From the sequence record NC_028901.1: DNA of 43,900 bases; one strand, written 5' to 3'. Numbering within the stretch: position 1 is the first letter of the stretch; each line of letters begins with the position of its first letter. Shown piece after piece: positions 1,193-37,968 of this stretch. A model generated the notes under the pieces. That model was not told the origin of the DNA. It saw only the letters and a list, made by a program, of their open reading frames with translations, and did not search any database. Made by a program: the position numbers and the translations under genes. This DNA is from Escherichia phage slur05.

Positions 1193-1884
1193 CAATCTGG
1201 TCACTGTTTGACGGCAGCGGCTTGATGATTGAGCGTGCGGCTGAGATGGGGCATAAGTGTTATTGCTTCAACTACTCCGAAGCCGATCACGGGTCTTACC
1301 TTGACTACCGGATTTATGGTCGCGGAATCCGGTATCGCAATGAGTTTATCGATCTGGACTTTGTAGACCGTGCGATGAATGGCGATTTCGGTACGCCAGA
1401 TATCATCTATGCGTTTCCTCCGTGCACGGATCTGGCAGTGAGCGGCGCGCCAGCTTTCCCGCGCAAACGTGCAAAAGACCCCGCCTTTCAGCTTAAGGCG
1501 GTGCGCACCGCGAAGATCGCCGCTTACCTGGGTGACTTCTTCGAAGTGCCATATATGATTGAGAATCCGCGCAGTGTGCTTTCCACCCAGTGGCGCAAGC
1601 CGGATCACTCGTTCGACCCGTGGGAGTATGGGGGGTATCTGCCGGAGGATGACGTACACCCGCTCTTCCCGGAATACATCAACGCCCGCGATTCATATCC
1701 GAAGCTGACTTGCTTATGGACCGGCAACGGCTTCCGTATGCCAGAGAAGAAACCTGTTTTCGTTGAAAAAGGGTACTCGAAACAGTATAGTCGCCTCGGT
1801 GGTAAATCCGCTCGTACAAAATTAATCCGCTCACTCACTCCGCGCGGCTTCGCGATAGCGGTTAACGAGGAAAATTTAAAATGA
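1189..1884 (+). CDS. Mini C5-cytosine methyltransferase-like protein (231 aa)
   Basis: ATG overlaps the helicase stop (ATGA). Ordered C5-MTase-like motifs: LFDGSG (motif I), FPPCTD (PC catalytic motif), IENPR (ENV-like), RSLTPRGFA (motif IX-like). Too short to carry a normal target-recognition domain. Confidence 0.45.
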   Translation: MTIWSLFDGSGLMIERAAEMGHKCYCFNYSEADHGSYLDYRIYGRGIRYRNEFIDLDFVDRAMNGDFGTPDIIYAFPPCTDLAVSGAPAFPRKRAKDPAFQLKAVRTAKIAAYLGDFFEVPYMIENPRSVLSTQWRKPDHSFDPWEYGGYLPEDDVHPLFPEYINARDSYPKLTCLWTGNGFRMPEKKPVFVEKGYSKQYSRLGGKSARTKLIRSLTPRGFAIAVNEENLK

Positions 1885-3423: not shown

Positions 3424-3890
3424 AACTACTGATTTGCGATTTAGATGGCGTTATCAACGGGTCAAGCAGTGTGCGCGACGACCTAGTTCCGGGGATCAAG
3501 ACTAAATCAACGTTTTGGGCGAAGTGGCATAAGGCCCACGTCCGCGAAGACATTAATTATGACATGCTGCCGTTATTGCGCATGTACGCTAAACAGGGCT
3601 TCGACATTGCGTACCTGTCAAACCGCCAGTCAGATTGCTGGGAGTCAACGAAAGAGCAATTGGATAGATTCCCGAAAGGTCGTCTGTTCTTACGCCATAT
3701 GCTTGATGACACGCCGCCTCCAGAGTACAAGGCCCGTTCCGTATTTGGCCTGGTGTGCTATGCAGAAGTTAACGAACTGGTCATCATTGACGACTGCGCG
3801 AAGAACATCGCCGCCATCAAACGGGCGTGTGAAGAACTGGTCCCGCATATTTATTCTGTGAATCTTGCAAAATTCACTTGCAACCAATAA
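3420..3890 (+). CDS. HAD-superfamily hydrolase/phosphatase-like protein
   Basis: N-terminal DxDGV motif (LICDLDGVING) and a C-terminal aspartate motif (VIIDDCAKN), as in HAD phosphatases. Confidence 0.5.
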   Translation: MKLLICDLDGVINGSSSVRDDLVPGIKTKSTFWAKWHKAHVREDINYDMLPLLRMYAKQGFDIAYLSNRQSDCWESTKEQLDRFPKGRLFLRHMLDDTPPPEYKARSVFGLVCYAEVNELVIIDDCAKNIAAIKRACEELVPHIYSVNLAKFTCNQ

Positions 3891-3906
3891 TGCAACCAAC
3901 TATATT
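3878..3906 (+). promoter_or_regulatory. Sigma70-like promoter TTGCAA-17-TATATT
   Basis: -35 TTGCAA 3878-3883, 17 bp spacer containing TGCAACCAA, -10 TATATT 3901-3906; upstream of gene 3953-4474. Confidence 0.5.
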
Positions 3907-6805: not shown

Positions 6806-6826
6806 AGCTGAATCCTCTTAAATTGG

Positions 6827-30148: not shown

Positions 30149-30304
30149 CATATGGCGGCGGGCTATATCAATTCGCAAATAACCATGCCGATGAAAGCTG
30201 CGGTGGTCCAGATTGCCAATACCCAAATATCTTTACGTGCCATCTTGATTACTCCTCTCGTTGGTTGGTTGCAGTATGGCCCCTATGTTGGTTGCGAGTC
30301 AAGC

Positions 30305-33478: not shown

Positions 33479-33699
33479 TGTTCAGTCCTCATGTTGGGGT
33501 GCAACCAATATAGCAAGGTGCCAGGCGGAACGCAACCAATATTAATCACGCGCATGAAAAAGTTGATCGCTATCTGCTGTGACTGCAAACCGCATTTTTC
33601 ACTTCGCATAATGCAACTCGCATTGGTTGCCTAGTTCATCCGCGACCGCACTTCGCATCATGCTGCCGTGTATTTTGCAATCCCCGGATTTTATTCAGT

Positions 33700-33870
33700 C
33701 TCAGACGAGGGGGGCCGCTGACCCCCGTCTAGTCTGAAAGACTGGGGGTTGTCCCGCCTGTCCCGCTCCTCTCCAGGCCGCGCCATACGGGGCGGGACGG
33801 GGGTGCTGTCCCGCTTTGTCCCGCCCCTTGTTTGTCCCGCTTTCTGTCCCGCTTACTTTATGCAATAAAA
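33700..33870. repeat. Structured non-coding repeat element, copy B
   Basis: Same hairpin and GTCCCGC iteron series as copy A, with inverted GGGAC...GTCCC pairs; lies in the 533 bp non-coding region beside the primase-helicase gene. Confidence 0.8.
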
Positions 33871-33973
33871 CTGCATAACTATTCATTATATTTACACTAC
33901 ACGGCAACCAATACGACCCGATAAAAACACTCAAAATGGCAACCAATGCGCGCAAAATTTAACCTTTTAGCGA

Positions 33974-33989
33974 TATGGGAATTCCCATA
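33974..33989. promoter_or_regulatory. Perfect 16 bp palindrome TATGGGAATTCCCATA flanked by direct repeats
   Basis: Self-complementary 16-mer; GGCAACCAATGCGCGCA occurs on both sides (33938-33954 and 33992-34008); just 3' of the primase-helicase gene. Confidence 0.5.
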
Positions 33990-34012
33990 CCGGCAACCAA
34001 TGCGCGCAGGAT

Positions 34013-36277
34013 TTAATCTTTCAGATCGTCATCGGTCGCAGAAAGCGTGATGGGTATATTCGTTTTAATGACGATATTCGACGACCCATAGATGGCCCCG
34101 GTGTGCGGATCTGTATAAAAACCGAGCACGCCGCGCTCCACCATATCGTCTATTGCCTTCGTCGATGTGCCACCTTTTGCCAATCCCGCCTGGCGGACAA
34201 TTGCCGATTTACTGAATCCGGTATGGTCCGGGTTATCTTCCATCAGTTTTTCCAGTGCCGCATAAAGCACTTTCTCTTTTTCATTGCGCGGTCCTGCGGC
34301 GTTCTCATCCTTAACTGCGGCCTTGCCCGCGGCCTTCGCCTGTTCGATGGCGAACGGTGCCAGGGCGACAGGTACGAGATAAAGAGTCTCGTCGCGTGGC
34401 GTGGATGCAATTGGCTTGACGTCCCAACCGGCAACCACGTCGCCGAAGTCAGGCCCGGTGCTGGTGGACTGGTGTGATTCGAACGCTTCGGACTTGCGGA
34501 GATCCACCTTAACCTTGCACTTGAGCAGGACGAAGCCGCGCGGCGCTTGCTTGATGCCGTTACGCGCCTTTTCGTGATACAGGTTCAATTGGCCCGGCTG
34601 ATTGTCGTCCGGTTGCTCGAGGAAGAACGCAGAATCGACAGCGCCATGCAGCGCGCCGGACCCACGGGGAGATCTGCTGCCGTTTGCACCCTTCGCCGGG
34701 TGGTGGATGACGCCCGCACTGCCGCCTGTATTTTCCGCAATGGCCTTCAGCGCTTTGACCACTTCACCCATATCGCTGGCGTTGTTCTCGTCGAACGGTT
34801 TAGCATCGGCGGACCGCAGCGCAACAGTCTGGTTGAGTGAGTCGAACGCCACCAGGCCAACCGGCTCGCCGTTAGCGGTGCGGTTGATGAAGCTGATAAC
34901 TTCACGCAAGCCGGATTTGCTGGTGATATCCCAGCCGCGTGATTGCAGATCGATAATGTGCAGCTTGTCCAGGTCGTGCTCATATTTAATCTGCAATGCT
35001 TCCTTACGCTGGTTGGAGGCTTCGCCACCTTCCGCGTCGAAATAGAAGCAATGAGACTGGACGACCTTCGCGCCGCCGAACGGAATCCCCGCGGCAACCG
35101 CACCCATTTGCCCCAGCACATAGAACGACTTACCGATGTTCGACTCACCGGCAAGATACCAGGTCGATTTAAAGTTAATCAACCCCTCGATGATCGGGTC
35201 GTGCTTGCTGAACAGTGCAACCGGCTCGTTGTCCAAGTCTGCGTCCGTACATCCGCCGTACTCGTCGCCGTCTCCGACCGCATCAACGATATGCGCATAG
35301 CACGATTCCACTTCCTCGTCGTCCAGTCCTGGGAGGATGGCGGCGATTTGCTTACGTGACATGTTGTGCGGTTCGACGTTCAGGTGGTCCGGGATCCCGA
35401 TAAGACGTAGCGCCAGGTGCTGGTGTCTGTTCAGTTCGGAACAGCACTCGTTGCCGGTGTGCATACACTTGAAACGGATCTCGCCATCCTTAACCATGAT
35501 AGCGGTGGACCCTTCGCCACTATGCAGATGTTCGTTCGGGCACGGCACTTCATAACCGCGACCAGAAGATAACTCCTCGAATCCGGCCTGGAAGCACCAG
35601 TCCAGAATGCCGTCTGCCACTGCGTCGTCGCCATGGGTAAGCTCGCGGCGTACTTCCTCTTTTTCCACTCCCAGCTTATCAGCCAGGCGAAGCAGACGAC
35701 GGACGCGGGCACGTTTGCCGTAGTGACACTTAACAACCGATTGCTGGTGAGGCAGGTACATAAGGCGGTTTGTGTCTTTCGTGCAATCGTCGAAGTCCAC
35801 ATCTGACAGGCCCAGTTGGTGTAATAGTGCATACTGGACGCGGCCCAGGTCTTCAGCCGGTACAGGCTTGTCAGTGAGCACCAGGAAACGAGCGCAACGC
35901 GTGCCACCTTTCAGCGGGTGGCGATCGCCGGTTGTGGTGTGAAATACATGTTCCAGTCCCGCGTCGATGAACGCCTTACGGCAGCGGCGCAGGGTGCGGG
36001 TGTCGGTACGGTCAATATCGAAGAACAGGATCGAGCGATCCACCGCACTGGTCTTGCGGCGTAATCCGTCACTGGTATAAGCCACAATCCCATCAGCCTT
36101 ACGCTTGCGGCGCGCATACTCCGCTTTATCTTCCGTTTTGTTGATATGCACCGAGGAGATTTCTTTCGCATCATTGATAAATTCGAAAAACTCTTCGGTA
36201 GTCATCTGGAAGTTTTCCGCCCTGGCTTTTTCGCCTTTTTTAGCGGGTCGTGTTACAGCGAATTTAATCAAGCTCAT
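34013..36277 (-). CDS. Primase-helicase (primase/prim-pol-like N-terminus plus P-loop helicase)
   Basis: 754 aa; N-terminal Asp-rich motif (LFFDIDRTD), Cys/His cluster (CPNEHLH...C...NECC), Walker A LAGESNIGKS, Walker B-like LVAFDSLNQ, sensor GVIHHPAKG. Confidence 0.7.
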   Translation of the reverse strand: MSLIKFAVTRPAKKGEKARAENFQMTTEEFFEFINDAKEISSVHINKTEDKAEYARRKRKADGIVAYTSDGLRRKTSAVDRSILFFDIDRTDTRTLRRCRKAFIDAGLEHVFHTTTGDRHPLKGGTRCARFLVLTDKPVPAEDLGRVQYALLHQLGLSDVDFDDCTKDTNRLMYLPHQQSVVKCHYGKRARVRRLLRLADKLGVEKEEVRRELTHGDDAVADGILDWCFQAGFEELSSGRGYEVPCPNEHLHSGEGSTAIMVKDGEIRFKCMHTGNECCSELNRHQHLALRLIGIPDHLNVEPHNMSRKQIAAILPGLDDEEVESCYAHIVDAVGDGDEYGGCTDADLDNEPVALFSKHDPIIEGLINFKSTWYLAGESNIGKSFYVLGQMGAVAAGIPFGGAKVVQSHCFYFDAEGGEASNQRKEALQIKYEHDLDKLHIIDLQSRGWDITSKSGLREVISFINRTANGEPVGLVAFDSLNQTVALRSADAKPFDENNASDMGEVVKALKAIAENTGGSAGVIHHPAKGANGSRSPRGSGALHGAVDSAFFLEQPDDNQPGQLNLYHEKARNGIKQAPRGFVLLKCKVKVDLRKSEAFESHQSTSTGPDFGDVVAGWDVKPIASTPRDETLYLVPVALAPFAIEQAKAAGKAAVKDENAAGPRNEKEKVLYAALEKLMEDNPDHTGFSKSAIVRQAGLAKGGTSTKAIDDMVERGVLGFYTDPHTGAIYGSSNIVIKTNIPITLSATDDDLKD

Positions 36278-36287
36278 TGCCGTTGCC

Positions 36288-36617
36288 TTACTTTGAAGTT
36301 TTATTATTGCGTACCCAGGAGCGCACTGTGCTCTGATTAATTCCGGTCAACTCGGCGATCATTGCCCATGACTTTCCCTCATTGCGCAAACGGATAACCT
36401 GCTTTTTGTATTCTTCCATTTCTTCATTGTGTTTTTGCAGCTTGCTTGCTGCCGTGCCGTTGAGCAATTCCAGCTTCGCGGTAAGCTCCTTCTCAGCACG
36501 CGATAATCTGGACACTTCAAATAACAGAGTATCCACCGCATTTGTGTAATACCAGGATTTACCCGCTTCGCCGCGGATTGCATTAGATAACACTTCAATT
36601 GCTTCTTTGATATTCAT
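36288..36617 (-). CDS. HTH DNA-binding protein (putative transcriptional regulator)
   Basis: C-terminal helix-turn-helix (SWAMIAELTGINQSTVRSWV); coiled-coil middle; heads a divergent regulatory region carrying an operator-like palindrome. Confidence 0.55.
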   Translation of the reverse strand: MNIKEAIEVLSNAIRGEAGKSWYYTNAVDTLLFEVSRLSRAEKELTAKLELLNGTAASKLQKHNEEMEEYKKQVIRLRNEGKSWAMIAELTGINQSTVRSWVRNNKTSK

Positions 36618-36630
36618 AATTCAGTCTCCT

Positions 36631-36647
36631 GTTGGTTAATGACCAAC
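36631..36647. promoter_or_regulatory. Operator-like inverted repeat GTTGGT-N5-ACCAAC in the leader of the HTH regulator gene
   Basis: Perfect 6 bp arms separated by 5 bp, between the putative promoter (TTGACA at 36671-36676 on minus strand) and the RBS. Confidence 0.4.
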
Positions 36648-36746
36648 GAAACTACACCTAAAACTGCATGGTGTCAAATCCTTTGGATATTGAAACGGGC
36701 GCGCACGCGTGTAATAATAATTCCCGTCTCATTGTCTCTTATTGGT

Positions 36747-36782
36747 TAGCGCCGTCGCATTTTGCCTCGGCGCTTTTTTTTT
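36747..36782 (+). terminator. Plus-strand intrinsic terminator inside the divergent regulatory region
   Basis: Stem AGCGCCG/CGGCGCT followed by T10; no annotated plus-strand gene upstream. Confidence 0.5.
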
Positions 36783-36793
36783 GAAATTAGTTG

Positions 36794-36823
36794 TTGACAC
36801 CCATCCTGCAACCAATCTATCAT
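36794..36823 (+). promoter_or_regulatory. Sigma70-like promoter TTGACA-18-TATCAT for the charged-protein operon
   Basis: Consensus -35 TTGACA 36794-36799, -10 TATCAT 36818-36823; spacer contains TGCAACCAAT. Confidence 0.55.
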
Positions 36824-37019
36824 TCACTCCGTCGACAGGATGCAGGACGCAAACTGGAGAGGGGCAACGCAGGGGCCGGATCGAAGTGTCAGGATTCCCA
36901 ACCGTGATTATATAACCAGGTCCACTACCCGAACGGGAGAACGCGCAACCTGGCAATATGTTAAGGCCACCGACGAAGTTAACTGCCGACACCTAAACTT
37001 AACCAATCGGAGATATACC

Positions 37020-37538
37020 ATGTTTGAGCAAATCGTAAACCTGATCACTCGCGGCGTAGTAGCACTGGAAGTCATCGCTAAGCATTATGAAACCGTTGGC
37101 GCTGCCGTTGGTAAGCAGGACGACAAGAAGCCGTCTAAGGCCAAAAAAGAAGTTGTCGAAGATGGCGACGATGAAGCCGAAGACGAAAAACCGGCTAAAG
37201 CTAAAAAAGCACCGGCGAAGGGTAAGGCCAAAAAAGAAGTCGTAGAAGATGACGACGACGAAGACGCCGAAGACGAAAAACCGGCTAAGGCTAAAAAAGC
37301 ACCGGCGAAAGGCAAAGGTAAGAAAGATGCCGATCCGCTGGCAGAGATGCGCGACGAAATCAAACAGTATGCCGCGATTATCGCCGGTGGTGATGACGAC
37401 GATGCTAACGACGAATTTGACGACCTGCTGGAAGCGTTCGAGATCAAATCAATCGCCAAGCTGGAAGACGACGACGTCGAAGACTTCCACAAAGATTTAA
37501 AAGAAATCGTCGAGACTTATTTCGAACTGGAAGACTAA
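37020..37538 (+). CDS. Charged repetitive protein (Lys/Ala-rich repeats alternating with acidic blocks)
   Basis: GGAGA RBS; promoter TTGACA-18-TATCAT upstream; internal repeat KKEVVEDxDDExEDEKPAKAKKAPAKGK x2; acidic C-terminal half. Confidence 0.6.
   Translation: MFEQIVNLITRGVVALEVIAKHYETVGAAVGKQDDKKPSKAKKEVVEDGDDEAEDEKPAKAKKAPAKGKAKKEVVEDDDDEDAEDEKPAKAKKAPAKGKGKKDADPLAEMRDEIKQYAAIIAGGDDDDANDEFDDLLEAFEIKSIAKLEDDDVEDFHKDLKEIVETYFELED
37140..37300 (+). repeat. Direct ~75 bp tandem repeat inside the charged-protein gene
   Basis: AAAAAAGAAGT(T/C)GT(C/A)GAAGATG...GAAGACGAAAAACCGGCTAA(A/G)GCTAAAAAAGCACCGGCGAA occurs twice. Confidence 0.6.
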
Positions 37539-37542
37539 TATC

Positions 37543-37668
37543 ATGGACTATGAAATGAGAATCATGCTCGATTTCATAGCAGAAAATTGGGCGGCATTCA
37601 CCGCCTTCTGCGAAGAAAGAGGCGACGACCCGGACGAGGTTTATAAACAACTCGGCGGTGAAGATTAA
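37543..37668 (+). CDS. Hypothetical small acidic protein (41 aa)
   Basis: ATG 4 nt after the upstream stop; followed by intrinsic terminator 37676-37704. Confidence 0.35.
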   Translation: MDYEMRIMLDFIAENWAAFTAFCEERGDDPDEVYKQLGGED

Positions 37669-37675
37669 TATTATC

Positions 37676-37704
37676 CGGCCCGCATATTAGCGGGCCTCTT
37701 TTTA
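37676..37704 (+). terminator. Rho-independent terminator after the charged-protein operon
   Basis: Stem GGCCCGC/GCGGGCC, loop ATATTA, then TCTTTTT. Confidence 0.65.
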
Positions 37705-37716
37705 GAGGACGAGACA

Positions 37717-37968
37717 ATGGCACGCTTCACGCTAATCGAGGCGGTGGACTCCCGCGACCAACGCCCATATTATTGGCTATTCGAACGCATCGGCAATTTT
37801 CGGTCGCGCGTGGCTGTAATAGACAAACGCCGCAACACCCCCGCGCAAATTAAGCGCACCACCTTTACTAATCCCGACTTTTATATTTGGGCCGATTCCA
37901 ATCTGGAATATGTTCGCTTCGCCGTTGCATCAGAAGCAAGAACAATTGACCGCTGGGAGACAAAATAA
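37717..37968 (+). CDS. Hypothetical protein (83 aa)
   Basis: GAGGA RBS (GAGGACGAGACAATG); basic protein. Confidence 0.45.
   Translation: MARFTLIEAVDSRDQRPYYWLFERIGNFRSRVAVIDKRRNTPAQIKRTTFTNPDFYIWADSNLEYVRFAVASEARTIDRWETK

Follow-up and report, generated by a model that had tools for sequence, protein, structure and literature searches.

Putative small RNA and structured leader RNA in the divergent early control region of Escherichia phage slur05

Introduction

The c4 RNA of phages P1 and P7 and the CI RNA of phage P4 are short phage RNAs whose unpaired segments pair with repeated targets in early or immunity transcripts, including ribosome-binding regions, and in both cases the RNA and its targets are related by duplication. 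Another described group, comprising lambda OOP, P22 sar and the plasmid CopA-type RNAs, consists of 60–90-nt RNAs that lower the expression of regulator or replication-initiator genes by acting on translation or stability. Here we analyze a locus of Escherichia phage slur05 (NC_028901.1) for which a short plus-strand RNA reminiscent of both groups is predicted, together with a 160-nt structured leader RNA; the whole stretch of 43,900 nt is referred to as the window. The locus is a 402-nt non-coding gap separating two divergent genes, which encode a 109-aa protein with a coiled coil and a C-terminal helix-turn-helix (HTH) domain (36288–36617, minus strand, heading the leftward operon) and a highly charged 172-aa protein (37020–37538, plus strand, phrog_3127, heading the rightward operon).

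The locus resembles c4 and CI in that one antisense and at least two sense copies of a shared element lie within 400 nt. However, c4 and CI are processed from the transcript of a regulated operon and serve lysogenic immunity, whereas the present phage is virulent, and its RNA would come from its own promoter–terminator unit and have predicted targets in two divergent operons. A strong promoter and an end at an intrinsic terminator are shared with OOP, sar and CopA, which differ in being cis-encoded and fully complementary to their targets; here there is no gene overlap, and complementarity is partial (7+7, 8+7 or 10 bp). Repeats beside replication genes, combined with inverted half-repeats at a promoter, are the classical layout of initiator autoregulation. 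Like the iteron systems of plasmid Rep proteins and of P4 alpha with ori/crr, the slur05 genome has motif repeats beside replication genes (33894–34024) and inverted half-sites over the promoter that serves the operon of the replication proteins, although its motif also occurs in spacers and −35 regions of several other promoters. The put RNAs of HK022, like other antitermination elements carried in leaders (EAR, for example), invite a comparison as structured RNAs directly 3′ of early promoters in a phage that uses host RNA polymerase, but the likeness is one of position only: as described, put comprises two stem-loops of about 70 nt, in contrast to a 160-nt multi-helix junction here, and relatives of slur05 without the leader keep the same downstream terminator. 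The leader also resembles orphan phage RNAs in Rfam (DUF2693-FD, PhotoRC and GOLLD/ROOL) in being supported by covariation and found by comparative analysis; of these, DUF2693-FD gave a weak sub-threshold match only, on the opposite strand at 36803–36841.

Dhillonviruses and T1-like phages are frequent in coliphage collections and in screens for defence systems. To our knowledge, their early regulation is essentially unstudied. Positions 36200–37600 are 100% identical to Escherichia phage slur06 (LN881731.1, genus Dhillonvirus), and the region is held in common with about 170 related phage records; the same sequence search found it in no E. coli genome. The gap controls early genes on both of its sides in this Dhillonvirus, a virulent phage dependent on host RNA polymerase. 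We give roughly even chances to the complete explanation developed below, which comprises three promoters, a small RNA (sRNA) repressor, a regulator recognizing a DNA motif, and a leader RNA. Neither the sRNA, nor the 9-nt motif of the putative regulator, nor the leader RNA is described in Rfam or in the literature searched.

Results and Discussion

Three promoters in the intergenic gap

Three promoters with sigma-70-type hexamers and 16–18-nt spacers are present in the gap (start sites are predicted). The leftward promoter (36650–36678, minus strand) has a −35 of TTGACA (36678–36673), a 17-nt spacer, and a −10 of TAGTTT (36655–36650), and matches the consensus hexamers at 9 of 12 positions, as read from the sequence. 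Promoter P1 (36690–36718, plus strand) matches at 10 of 12, with TTGAAA at 36690–36695, a 17-nt spacer, and the extended −10 TGtAATAAT. Promoter P2 (36794–36823, plus strand; TTGACA-18-TATCAT) matches at 11 of 12 and serves the rightward early operon. P2 is the best and P1 the second-best promoter match in the 16 kb scanned. In the GenBank record of the related phage HK578, the depositors annotated promoters at all three matching places, and the one at the leftward position has a −10 of TAGTAT.

A first-pass annotation made from the sequence of the window had read this gap as a divergent control region with two plus-strand promoters. All the features it listed exist, with coordinates that hold to within 1–2 nt, and its interpretation is partly supported. 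The divergent layout gains a third promoter, the leftward one, and the consensus promoter at 36794–36823 was placed exactly. The upstream promoter had been given as TTGAAA-16-TAATAA from 36689; it is present but begins at 36690, and its −10 reads either as AATAAT at 36713–36718, with a 17-nt spacer and a TG extension, or as TAATAA with a 16-nt spacer. Not part of that annotation were the covarying 160-nt leader RNA, the antisense relation of the sRNA to initiation regions, and the 9-mer in the P2 spacer.

Conservation was assessed in an alignment of 16 Dhillonvirus loci, with nucleotide diversity (pi) calculated from 15 of them, leaving HK578 out. The leftward −35 is invariant across all relatives compared, and promoter P1 has a pi of 0.005, with a single variable column. 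Promoter spacers normally drift. The P1 spacer at 36700–36711 is a perfectly alternating pyrimidine–purine tract, CGCGCACGCGTG, and in the relatives it is either invariant or swapped only for another alternating sequence, CGCGCGCGCGTG. Placed between the divergent promoters, this tract may respond to supercoiling, as Z-DNA-prone sequences do, or be bound by a protein.

In the proposed scheme, the leftward promoter would express the HTH protein and the helicase-primase encoded after it, P2 would express the rightward early operon, and P1 would express a unit closed about 57 nt later by a strong intrinsic terminator.

A putative small RNA expressed from promoter P1

A short non-coding RNA is probably made from P1 on the plus strand. 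The candidate is about 57 nt long (36725–36782), with its 5′ end placed from the −10 and its 3′ end from the T-run. The first-pass annotation had already suggested such a transcript, and conservation, compensatory terminator changes, and complementarity to targets all lend good support to this putative RNA.

The intrinsic terminator (36748–36782, plus strand) consists of a GC-rich hairpin directly followed by a U-run. The hairpin (36748–36774) has seven outer and three inner pairs, with a predicted free energy (dG) of −16.7 kcal/mol and a z-score of −3.2, and it is followed by nine T residues (36774–36782), not the ten reported in the first-pass annotation, which had started the terminator at 36747. 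The loop exceeds 8 nt, hence an automated terminator scan skipped it. Across six variants of the stem, two of the ten pairs show compensatory double changes and none is broken; in the two most divergent relatives, L005 and LM40P1, AGCGCCG/CGGCGCU becomes AUCCCCG/CGGGGAU, which amounts to two compensatory pairs. A bidirectional terminator was ruled out, as no T-run follows the stem on the minus strand.

Upstream of the hairpin, the RNA would begin with a single-stranded CU-rich part, GUCUCAUUGUCUCUUAUUGGUUAG (36726–36749, plus strand), that is antisense to the early-gene initiation motif UAACCAAY-N-GGAGAC..AAUG. This unpaired part (23 nt) contains two GUCUC anti-Shine-Dalgarno motifs and AUUGGUUA. 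Its body at 36728–36747 has a pi of 0.000, without a substitution in the 15 relatives and with a 1-nt deletion in the L005/LM40P1 type; the corresponding values are 0.144 for the HTH gene and 0.103 for the charged-protein gene. Together, P1 and the sRNA body are the most conserved DNA within about 2 kb, and the only parts of the unit that vary are the T-run, in its length, the loop of the hairpin, and nucleotides near the predicted start. These diversity values and the compensatory stem changes indicate that the promoter–terminator unit is strongly selected, partly as an RNA hairpin plus an unpaired 20-nt sequence.

The claim that no protein gene precedes the terminator holds as well: no conserved open reading frame (ORF) ends there. 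In relatives, 1-nt indels near 36688 and 36720 interrupt the plus-strand ORFs 36639–36749 and 36668–36784; they likewise break a minus-strand ORF of 24 codons from near 36731, which has no promoter, so small ORFs are excluded on both strands. Searches of the window against Rfam returned no match for the sRNA at gathering thresholds, and only sub-threshold matches at chance level at E ≤ 10.

Predicted pairing with early-gene initiation regions

The sequence context of the sRNA gives clues to its function. The 13-mer AACCAANNGGAGA, with one mismatch allowed, has three copies in the genome, compared to 0.52 expected genome-wide, and all three are in the gap: two run in the sense of the mRNA, at the ribosome-binding site of each divergent first gene, and the third lies in antisense inside the sRNA. 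The sRNA locus (36712–36748) is a partial direct repeat of the HTH start region (36611–36638), which makes the plus-strand transcript antisense to the HTH initiation region.

Candidate initiation regions in the window, defined by a Shine-Dalgarno sequence, a start codon, and an ORF no shorter than 40 aa (82 in total), were ranked by predicted duplex energy with the sRNA. Of the best five sites, two belong to the first genes on either side (HTH and charged protein) and two to further genes of the rightward operon, those at 37717 and 37968. The HTH initiation region (36618–36640, minus strand; mRNA sense UUAACCAACAGGAGACUGAAUUAUG) carries a AACCAANNGGAGA copy and ranks 2nd of 82 at −18.7 kcal/mol, with UAACCAA.AGGAGAC pairing with GUCUCUU.UUGGUUA. 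The initiation region of the charged-protein gene (36999–37022, plus strand; UUAACCAAUCGGAGAUAUACCAUG) ranks 3rd at −18.0 kcal/mol, forming 8+7 bp between UAACCAAU.GGAGAUA and UGUCUCU.AUUGGUUA. At 37717 the predicted duplex of 10 bp runs across the start codon (GAGACAAUGG with UCAUUGUCUC), and at 37968 it comprises 10+6 bp. A further duplex is predicted at the helicase-primase start (CAAUGAG with CUCAUUG).

The mean dG of the four early targets is 6.8 kcal/mol below that of the remaining regions, compared to +0.96 ± 1.35 for 300 shuffles of the seed, none of which was as extreme; the conserved unpaired seed thus shows above-chance complementarity to initiation regions, for a set of targets defined post hoc. 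The 37717 target, GAGACAATGG, is invariant in the 16 relatives. In CHD5UKE2, which has a variant left gene, the sequence AGACAAUGAG pairs at 10 of 10 positions with the same invariant sRNA, at −19.4 kcal/mol.

As a mechanism, we tentatively favor the sRNA as a trans-antisense repressor of early-gene translation. Its 5′ part would pair with early mRNAs from both operons around their ribosome-binding sites and start codons (on the left, those of the HTH gene and the helicase-primase; on the right, those of the charged-protein gene and of the genes at 37717 and 37968), and this pairing would reduce their translation, as negative feedback or as early shut-off. The sRNA may derive from a partial duplicate of the HTH initiation region that is transcribed in the antisense direction. 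If this is correct, the sRNA would provide an RNA-based early shut-off or feedback in a virulent phage, acting on the phage's own early and replication genes.

A recurrent 9-nt motif at promoters and a candidate origin

The inverted repeat GTTGGT-TAATG-ACCAAC lies at 36631–36647, exactly where the first-pass annotation had put an operator-like GTTGGT-N5-ACCAAC. Short-gap palindromes with 6+6 arms are expected by chance about once per 400 nt, so the palindrome alone proves nothing. All relatives that carry the same left gene have it unchanged, and HK578 and CHD5UKE2, in which the 5′ part of the left gene is replaced, lack it; both of these keep the HTH half of the gene and the 9-mer in the P2 spacer.

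Its arms are two inverted AACCAAC-like half-sites over the predicted leftward +1, which makes the repeat a candidate operator. AACCAAY has 28 copies in the genome, compared to 11 expected, and the longer GCAACCAAY has 20 exact copies, where 0.87 would be expected and none of 200 simulations gave more than 5. This suggests that GCAACCAAY is a phage-wide regulatory site. Its sites include 2205, 2222, 3880, 3892, 6822, 22821, 22834, 30264, 30287, 33061, 33501, 33532, 36808 and 43649; they are often paired, 12–35 nt apart, and lie in promoter-like spacers or −35 regions, or just 5′ of Shine-Dalgarno sequences. The copy in P2, GCAACCAAT (36808–36816, plus strand), is in the spacer and abuts the −10 (TTGACAcccatcctGCAACCAATcTATCAT), is invariant in divergent relatives, and is a candidate site for a regulator. 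The motif has the same position at 3892 and 33532, lies just 3′ of the −35 at 30287, and overlaps a TTGCAA −35 at 3880 and 33061.

Iteron-like repeats of GGCAACCAATGCGCGCA..ATTTAA occur at 33894–34024, with an inverted copy at 33619–33631, and adjoin the 3′ end of the helicase-primase gene. They are part of a 530-nt gap without a long ORF (33479–34024) with six copies of GCAACCAAT, some of them in two iteron-like repeats of 33 nt; other short direct repeats are found at 33600–33663 and 33744–33828. The repeats make this gap a candidate replication origin.

Half-sites over the leftward +1 together with iteron-like repeats form the layout of an autoregulated initiator or regulator, and the label "operator-like" is thus reasonable for the palindrome: its half-sites belong to a 20-fold over-represented motif and cover the leftward +1, even though the palindrome by itself is at chance level. 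GCAACCAAY would be recognized by a DNA-binding protein of the phage, for which the HTH protein encoded next to the gap is the simplest candidate, and binding of this protein at the P2 spacer, the half-sites over the leftward +1, and the iteron-like repeats would couple early transcription to replication control. The 9-mer would in that case link early promoters across the genome to the putative replication origin.

A structured leader RNA downstream of promoter P2

Comparative evidence shows that P2 transcripts, as predicted, start with a 160-nt multi-helix RNA (36831–36990, plus strand) from a family outside Rfam. It runs from about the +1 of P2 and lies in the 190-nt stretch from P2 to the first rightward gene. 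The model contains 36 pairs: a closing stem (P1 stem, 36831–38/36983–90), a P2 hairpin with a GGA loop (36841–51), a long-range helix (36861–65/36966–70) in which GGRGC pairs with GGCYAC, a hairpin at 36872–99 (GGGG-CUUGA-(8-nt loop)-UCAGG-AU-UCCC), and a three-part arm (36908–14/36957–64, 36916–21/36948–53 and 36928–37) that ends in a 3-bp stem with a GAAA-type loop.

The architecture was derived by hand analysis and per-sequence folding, and 29 distinct copies were then realigned with a covariance model. Standard pairs fill 84.1% of the cells, compared to 32–48% when partners are slid by 1–3 columns; 20 of the 36 pairs have changed on both sides, compared to 3–7 in the slid controls; and the covariation score is 0.376, compared to about 0.05 in those controls, with none of 500 shuffles reaching the observed values, all in an alignment fitted to the model and hence biased in its favor. 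The register of the model is that of the Arya group, and the P1 stem, P2 hairpin and outer arm of the Dhillonviruses are scored as unpaired though they pair in their own register. The R/Y position of the long-range helix covaries, being A-U in 16 copies and G-C in 13. In L209 the P2 stem is wholly replaced (GCUAUA-AGG-AUAUAGC) and a C-G in the next hairpin becomes U-A; other compensatory changes include G-C to A-U in KMI8 and U-A to G-U in Lumpael. The loop of the P2 hairpin is always A(N)GGA across copies, even where the stem is entirely replaced.

A sensitive search with the entire gap matched approximately 36842–36978 to unannotated DNA of unrelated phages at 80–94% identity. Holders of the leader are the Drexlerviridae swan01, slyngel, tunus, PHB17, Motto and KMI8, as well as Jilinvirus Arya and PT1, Serratia MQ-4, Klebsiella IME279, Salmonella Lumpael, and Alux-21; overall, about 170 phage records contain it, from Dhillonvirus, some of the Drexlerviridae, and Jilinvirus-like phages. 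In all cases it begins 6–12 nt after a sigma-70-type promoter and ends 12–45 nt 5′ of a start codon, and a comparison of the downstream genes across the phage groups found no homology. Within Dhillonvirus, the leader is a precise 148-nt presence/absence polymorphism: YD-2008.s, Envy, L005, L014, LM40P1 and CHD5UKE2 lack it and have a short hairpin instead. Judged from this distribution, the leader is an accessory and apparently horizontally shared module. Such a distribution is the usual signature of anti-defence genes, here carried by an RNA.

A protein-coding explanation was also considered. At most 18 of the 29 distinct copies keep any one reading frame open, and neither 36840–37019 nor the small ORFs in 36639–36784 show a conserved frame or indels in multiples of three. 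An in-frame extension of the charged-protein gene from the ATG at 36840 was rejected as non-coding, since it crosses the 148-nt indel (not a multiple of 3), covaries as RNA, and has no conserved frame. Public records nonetheless annotate ORFs over the leader, among them this extension, hypothetical proteins encoded on one strand or the other, and a "DNA methyltransferase" whose 3′ end overlaps the leader; examples are PT1 (1489–1695, minus strand), PHB17 (831–1589), and several Dhillonvirus records. These are probably mis-annotations of an RNA element, and naming the leader as RNA would correct such GenBank annotations.

Database searches beyond these phages returned little. Rfam 15 (4227 families) gave no match to the leader even at E ≤ 10, either with a 191-nt query or with the Arya copy (0 matches), and no copy was found in 5,426 E. 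coli genomes or in plasmids. A scan of 185,579 species genomes gave 23 matches, about the chance expectation, except for one true copy: contig QFQS01000013.1 (42.8 kb), binned as a Cereibacter sphaeroides metagenome-assembled genome, carries a full-length leader nearly identical to that of Klebsiella phage IME279 and is probably a phage contig mis-binned into a bacterial genome. Recurring matches in Elusimicrobia and Akkermansia are not leader RNAs and look protein-coding. A metagenome scan for the core pattern CGCAGGGG-gap-GATTCCCAACCG, with the gap set to 20–34 nt while the true gap is 17 nt, gave 21 matches, all by chance; CGCAGGGG-N10-30-GATTCCCAACCG would span the true gap. One metagenomic locus, L042 (7456–7640 of IMG/VR 3300020576_005136), has the 5′ core string GGAGAGGAGGAACGCAGGGGC with CCCCCGC/GCGGGGG flanks and is GC-rich, but it is no member of the family by profile search. 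Searching the literature for the core strings returned nothing relevant; the occurrence of CCGACGAAG in a TnpB/IscB paper is a guide target in umuDC, unrelated to the leader.

Alternative explanations

Several results weigh against the explanation proposed here, most of them concerning the sRNA. The literature searched contains no transcript, 5′-end or binding data for any Dhillonvirus. The predicted sRNA–target duplexes are modest (−16 to −20 kcal/mol), and when raw duplexes are ranked over the whole genome on both strands, the flanking sites (−18.5 and −18.8 kcal/mol) fall outside the top 60, although that ranking is uninformative and the comparison limited to initiation regions is the informative one. 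The "early set" of targets was defined post hoc, once the pattern had been seen. Because the seed barely varies among the relatives compared, there is no true covariation between seed and targets, and in L005 and LM40P1, changes in the seed and in the 37020 site weaken the upstream helix without compensation. A Shine-Dalgarno/leader motif common to these genes could also produce the complementarity as a side effect. As for the regulator, the HTH protein as binder of the 9-mer is circumstantial, by adjacency only. Finally, the single-sequence fold of the leader RNA is not unusually stable (z-score +0.34) and misses the covariation model, so that the case for structure rests on covariation.

For the P1 unit, one alternative is that promoter and terminator are kept for what they do as DNA or in transcription alone, shielding P2 from transcription that arrives from upstream, serving as an RNA-polymerase sink or supercoiling device, or providing a protein-binding or replication site, with the short RNA a functionless by-product. 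The invariant, alternating P1 spacer CGCGCACGCGTG points to a constraint on the DNA, the unit sits between back-to-back promoters close to replication genes, and the raw duplex energies of the sRNA are unexceptional genome-wide. We nevertheless consider such a role unlikely, given that the 20-nt unpaired body is fully invariant though needed by neither promoter nor terminator, that the RNA hairpin is preserved by compensatory changes, and that seed complementarity is specific to early initiation regions. That the seed is derived from, and matches, phage initiation regions also argues against a real sRNA acting on host mRNAs or on a host RNA chaperone (for example by Hfq titration). Such a host-directed RNA seems quite unlikely to us, even though the long U-tail of the terminator and an AU-rich stretch 5′ of the hairpin are like those of Hfq-dependent sRNAs, and the seed stays invariant where phage target sites vary. 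The recurrence of AACCAAY followed by a Shine-Dalgarno sequence at 6822, 22821 and 30260, together with the non-compensatory changes in L005 and LM40P1, fits a different idea, namely that UAACCAAY-N-GGAGA is a leader or translation-enhancer motif of early genes, or a protein-binding motif, and that its copy in the sRNA locus is a decayed inverted duplicate without regulatory meaning. We regard this as improbable, since a decayed duplicate would hardly be the most conserved 20 nt of the region or lie exactly between a strong promoter and a terminator. Repression of early-gene translation by the sRNA remains the mechanism we prefer.

For the leader RNA, a generic cis-acting leader and a stand-alone RNA acting on a host factor are the favored functions, and the evidence decides for neither. 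As a cis-acting expression element (a put-like antiterminator, an anti-Rho element, a 5′ stabilizer, or a translation enhancer), it would explain the start at about the +1 of a strong promoter and the end 12–45 nt before the first start codon, whatever the gene, and the rightward operon of the window does contain an intrinsic terminator. Put-like antitermination in particular fits the promoter-proximal position. However, natural variants without the leader retain the same operon and internal terminator, with no co-variation of terminator and leader, and the core is too elaborate and too constrained in sequence for a mere stabilizing hairpin; a cis role of this kind is possible but doubtful. 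We are equally hesitant about a stand-alone accessory RNA, such as a decoy that counters host defence or a sponge that titrates CsrA or another RNA-binding protein, for which first place in the early transcript would simply secure early and abundant RNA. Consistent with it are the precise presence or absence of the module among close relatives, the 80–94% identity across unrelated virulent phage groups with unrelated downstream genes, the absence from 5,426 E. coli genomes and from plasmids, and the A(N)GGA loop of the P2 hairpin, kept through a complete change of the stem; its CAGGAUG and CAGGACG, which we take to resemble CsrB repeats, would suit a CsrA sponge. Only a single GGA is in a hairpin loop, though, the other GGA motifs being in a junction or helix, and a constant spacing of about 25 nt to the next start codon hints at a role in cis. 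The multi-helix junction with its invariant unpaired GGAGA, AACGCA, AACCGUGA, CACU, AGAACGC and CCGACGAAG also brings to mind a riboswitch of a new class or a self-cleaving ribozyme. This is improbable: no expression platform (a conserved terminator or Shine-Dalgarno-sequestering helix) follows the leader, the downstream genes form no conserved or coherent set, and no relative exists in Rfam. More speculatively, and on balance rather unlikely, the leader would represent a new functional class of phage RNA, a promoter-proximal cassette moving between unrelated virulent enterobacterial siphophages and acting on a conserved host machine or on a defence system, for instance as a decoy, an inhibitor or a modifier of RNA polymerase; together with the adjacent sRNA directed against initiation regions, it would make this control region largely RNA-driven.

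Neighboring genes and other features

In the C-terminal half of the 109-aa protein, the Pfam domains HTH_23, Sigma70_r4_2 and HTH_28 score above cut-off, and the protein matches phrog_9366; its HTH half is 44% identical to HK578_045. Homologs in public records are named "DNA recombination nuclease inhibitor gamma", "transposase" or "resolvase". Pfam and PHROGs back a generic HTH domain only, so these names appear to be propagated guesses. The helicase-primase gene (754 aa; 34013–36277, minus strand) begins 10 nt after the HTH gene.

The left gene has two forms (the alternative one at 717–1145 in HK578 and 416–865 in CHD5UKE2), which have in common only the coiled-coil/HTH C-terminal half (44% identity) and differ in the N-terminus, the leader, and the presence of the palindrome. 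All four combinations of left-gene form with presence or absence of the leader RNA were found, from which it follows that the control region is a mosaic with independently exchanged modules.

On the right side, the charged-protein gene starts at the ATG at 37020 and is followed 3′ by small ORFs and then by a PD-(D/E)XK nuclease. A search for tRNA and tmRNA genes found none. The intrinsic terminator inside the rightward operon (37677–37702, plus strand; GGCCCGC-N6-GCGGGCC followed by a T-run) is kept in all 16 Dhillonvirus loci checked, with or without the leader RNA. The 6-nt loop of its hairpin (37677–37696) is found in both orientations among Dhillonviruses (TAATCT and AGATTA; ATATTA in the window), and the entire palindromic hairpin has thus apparently been inverted in some lineages.

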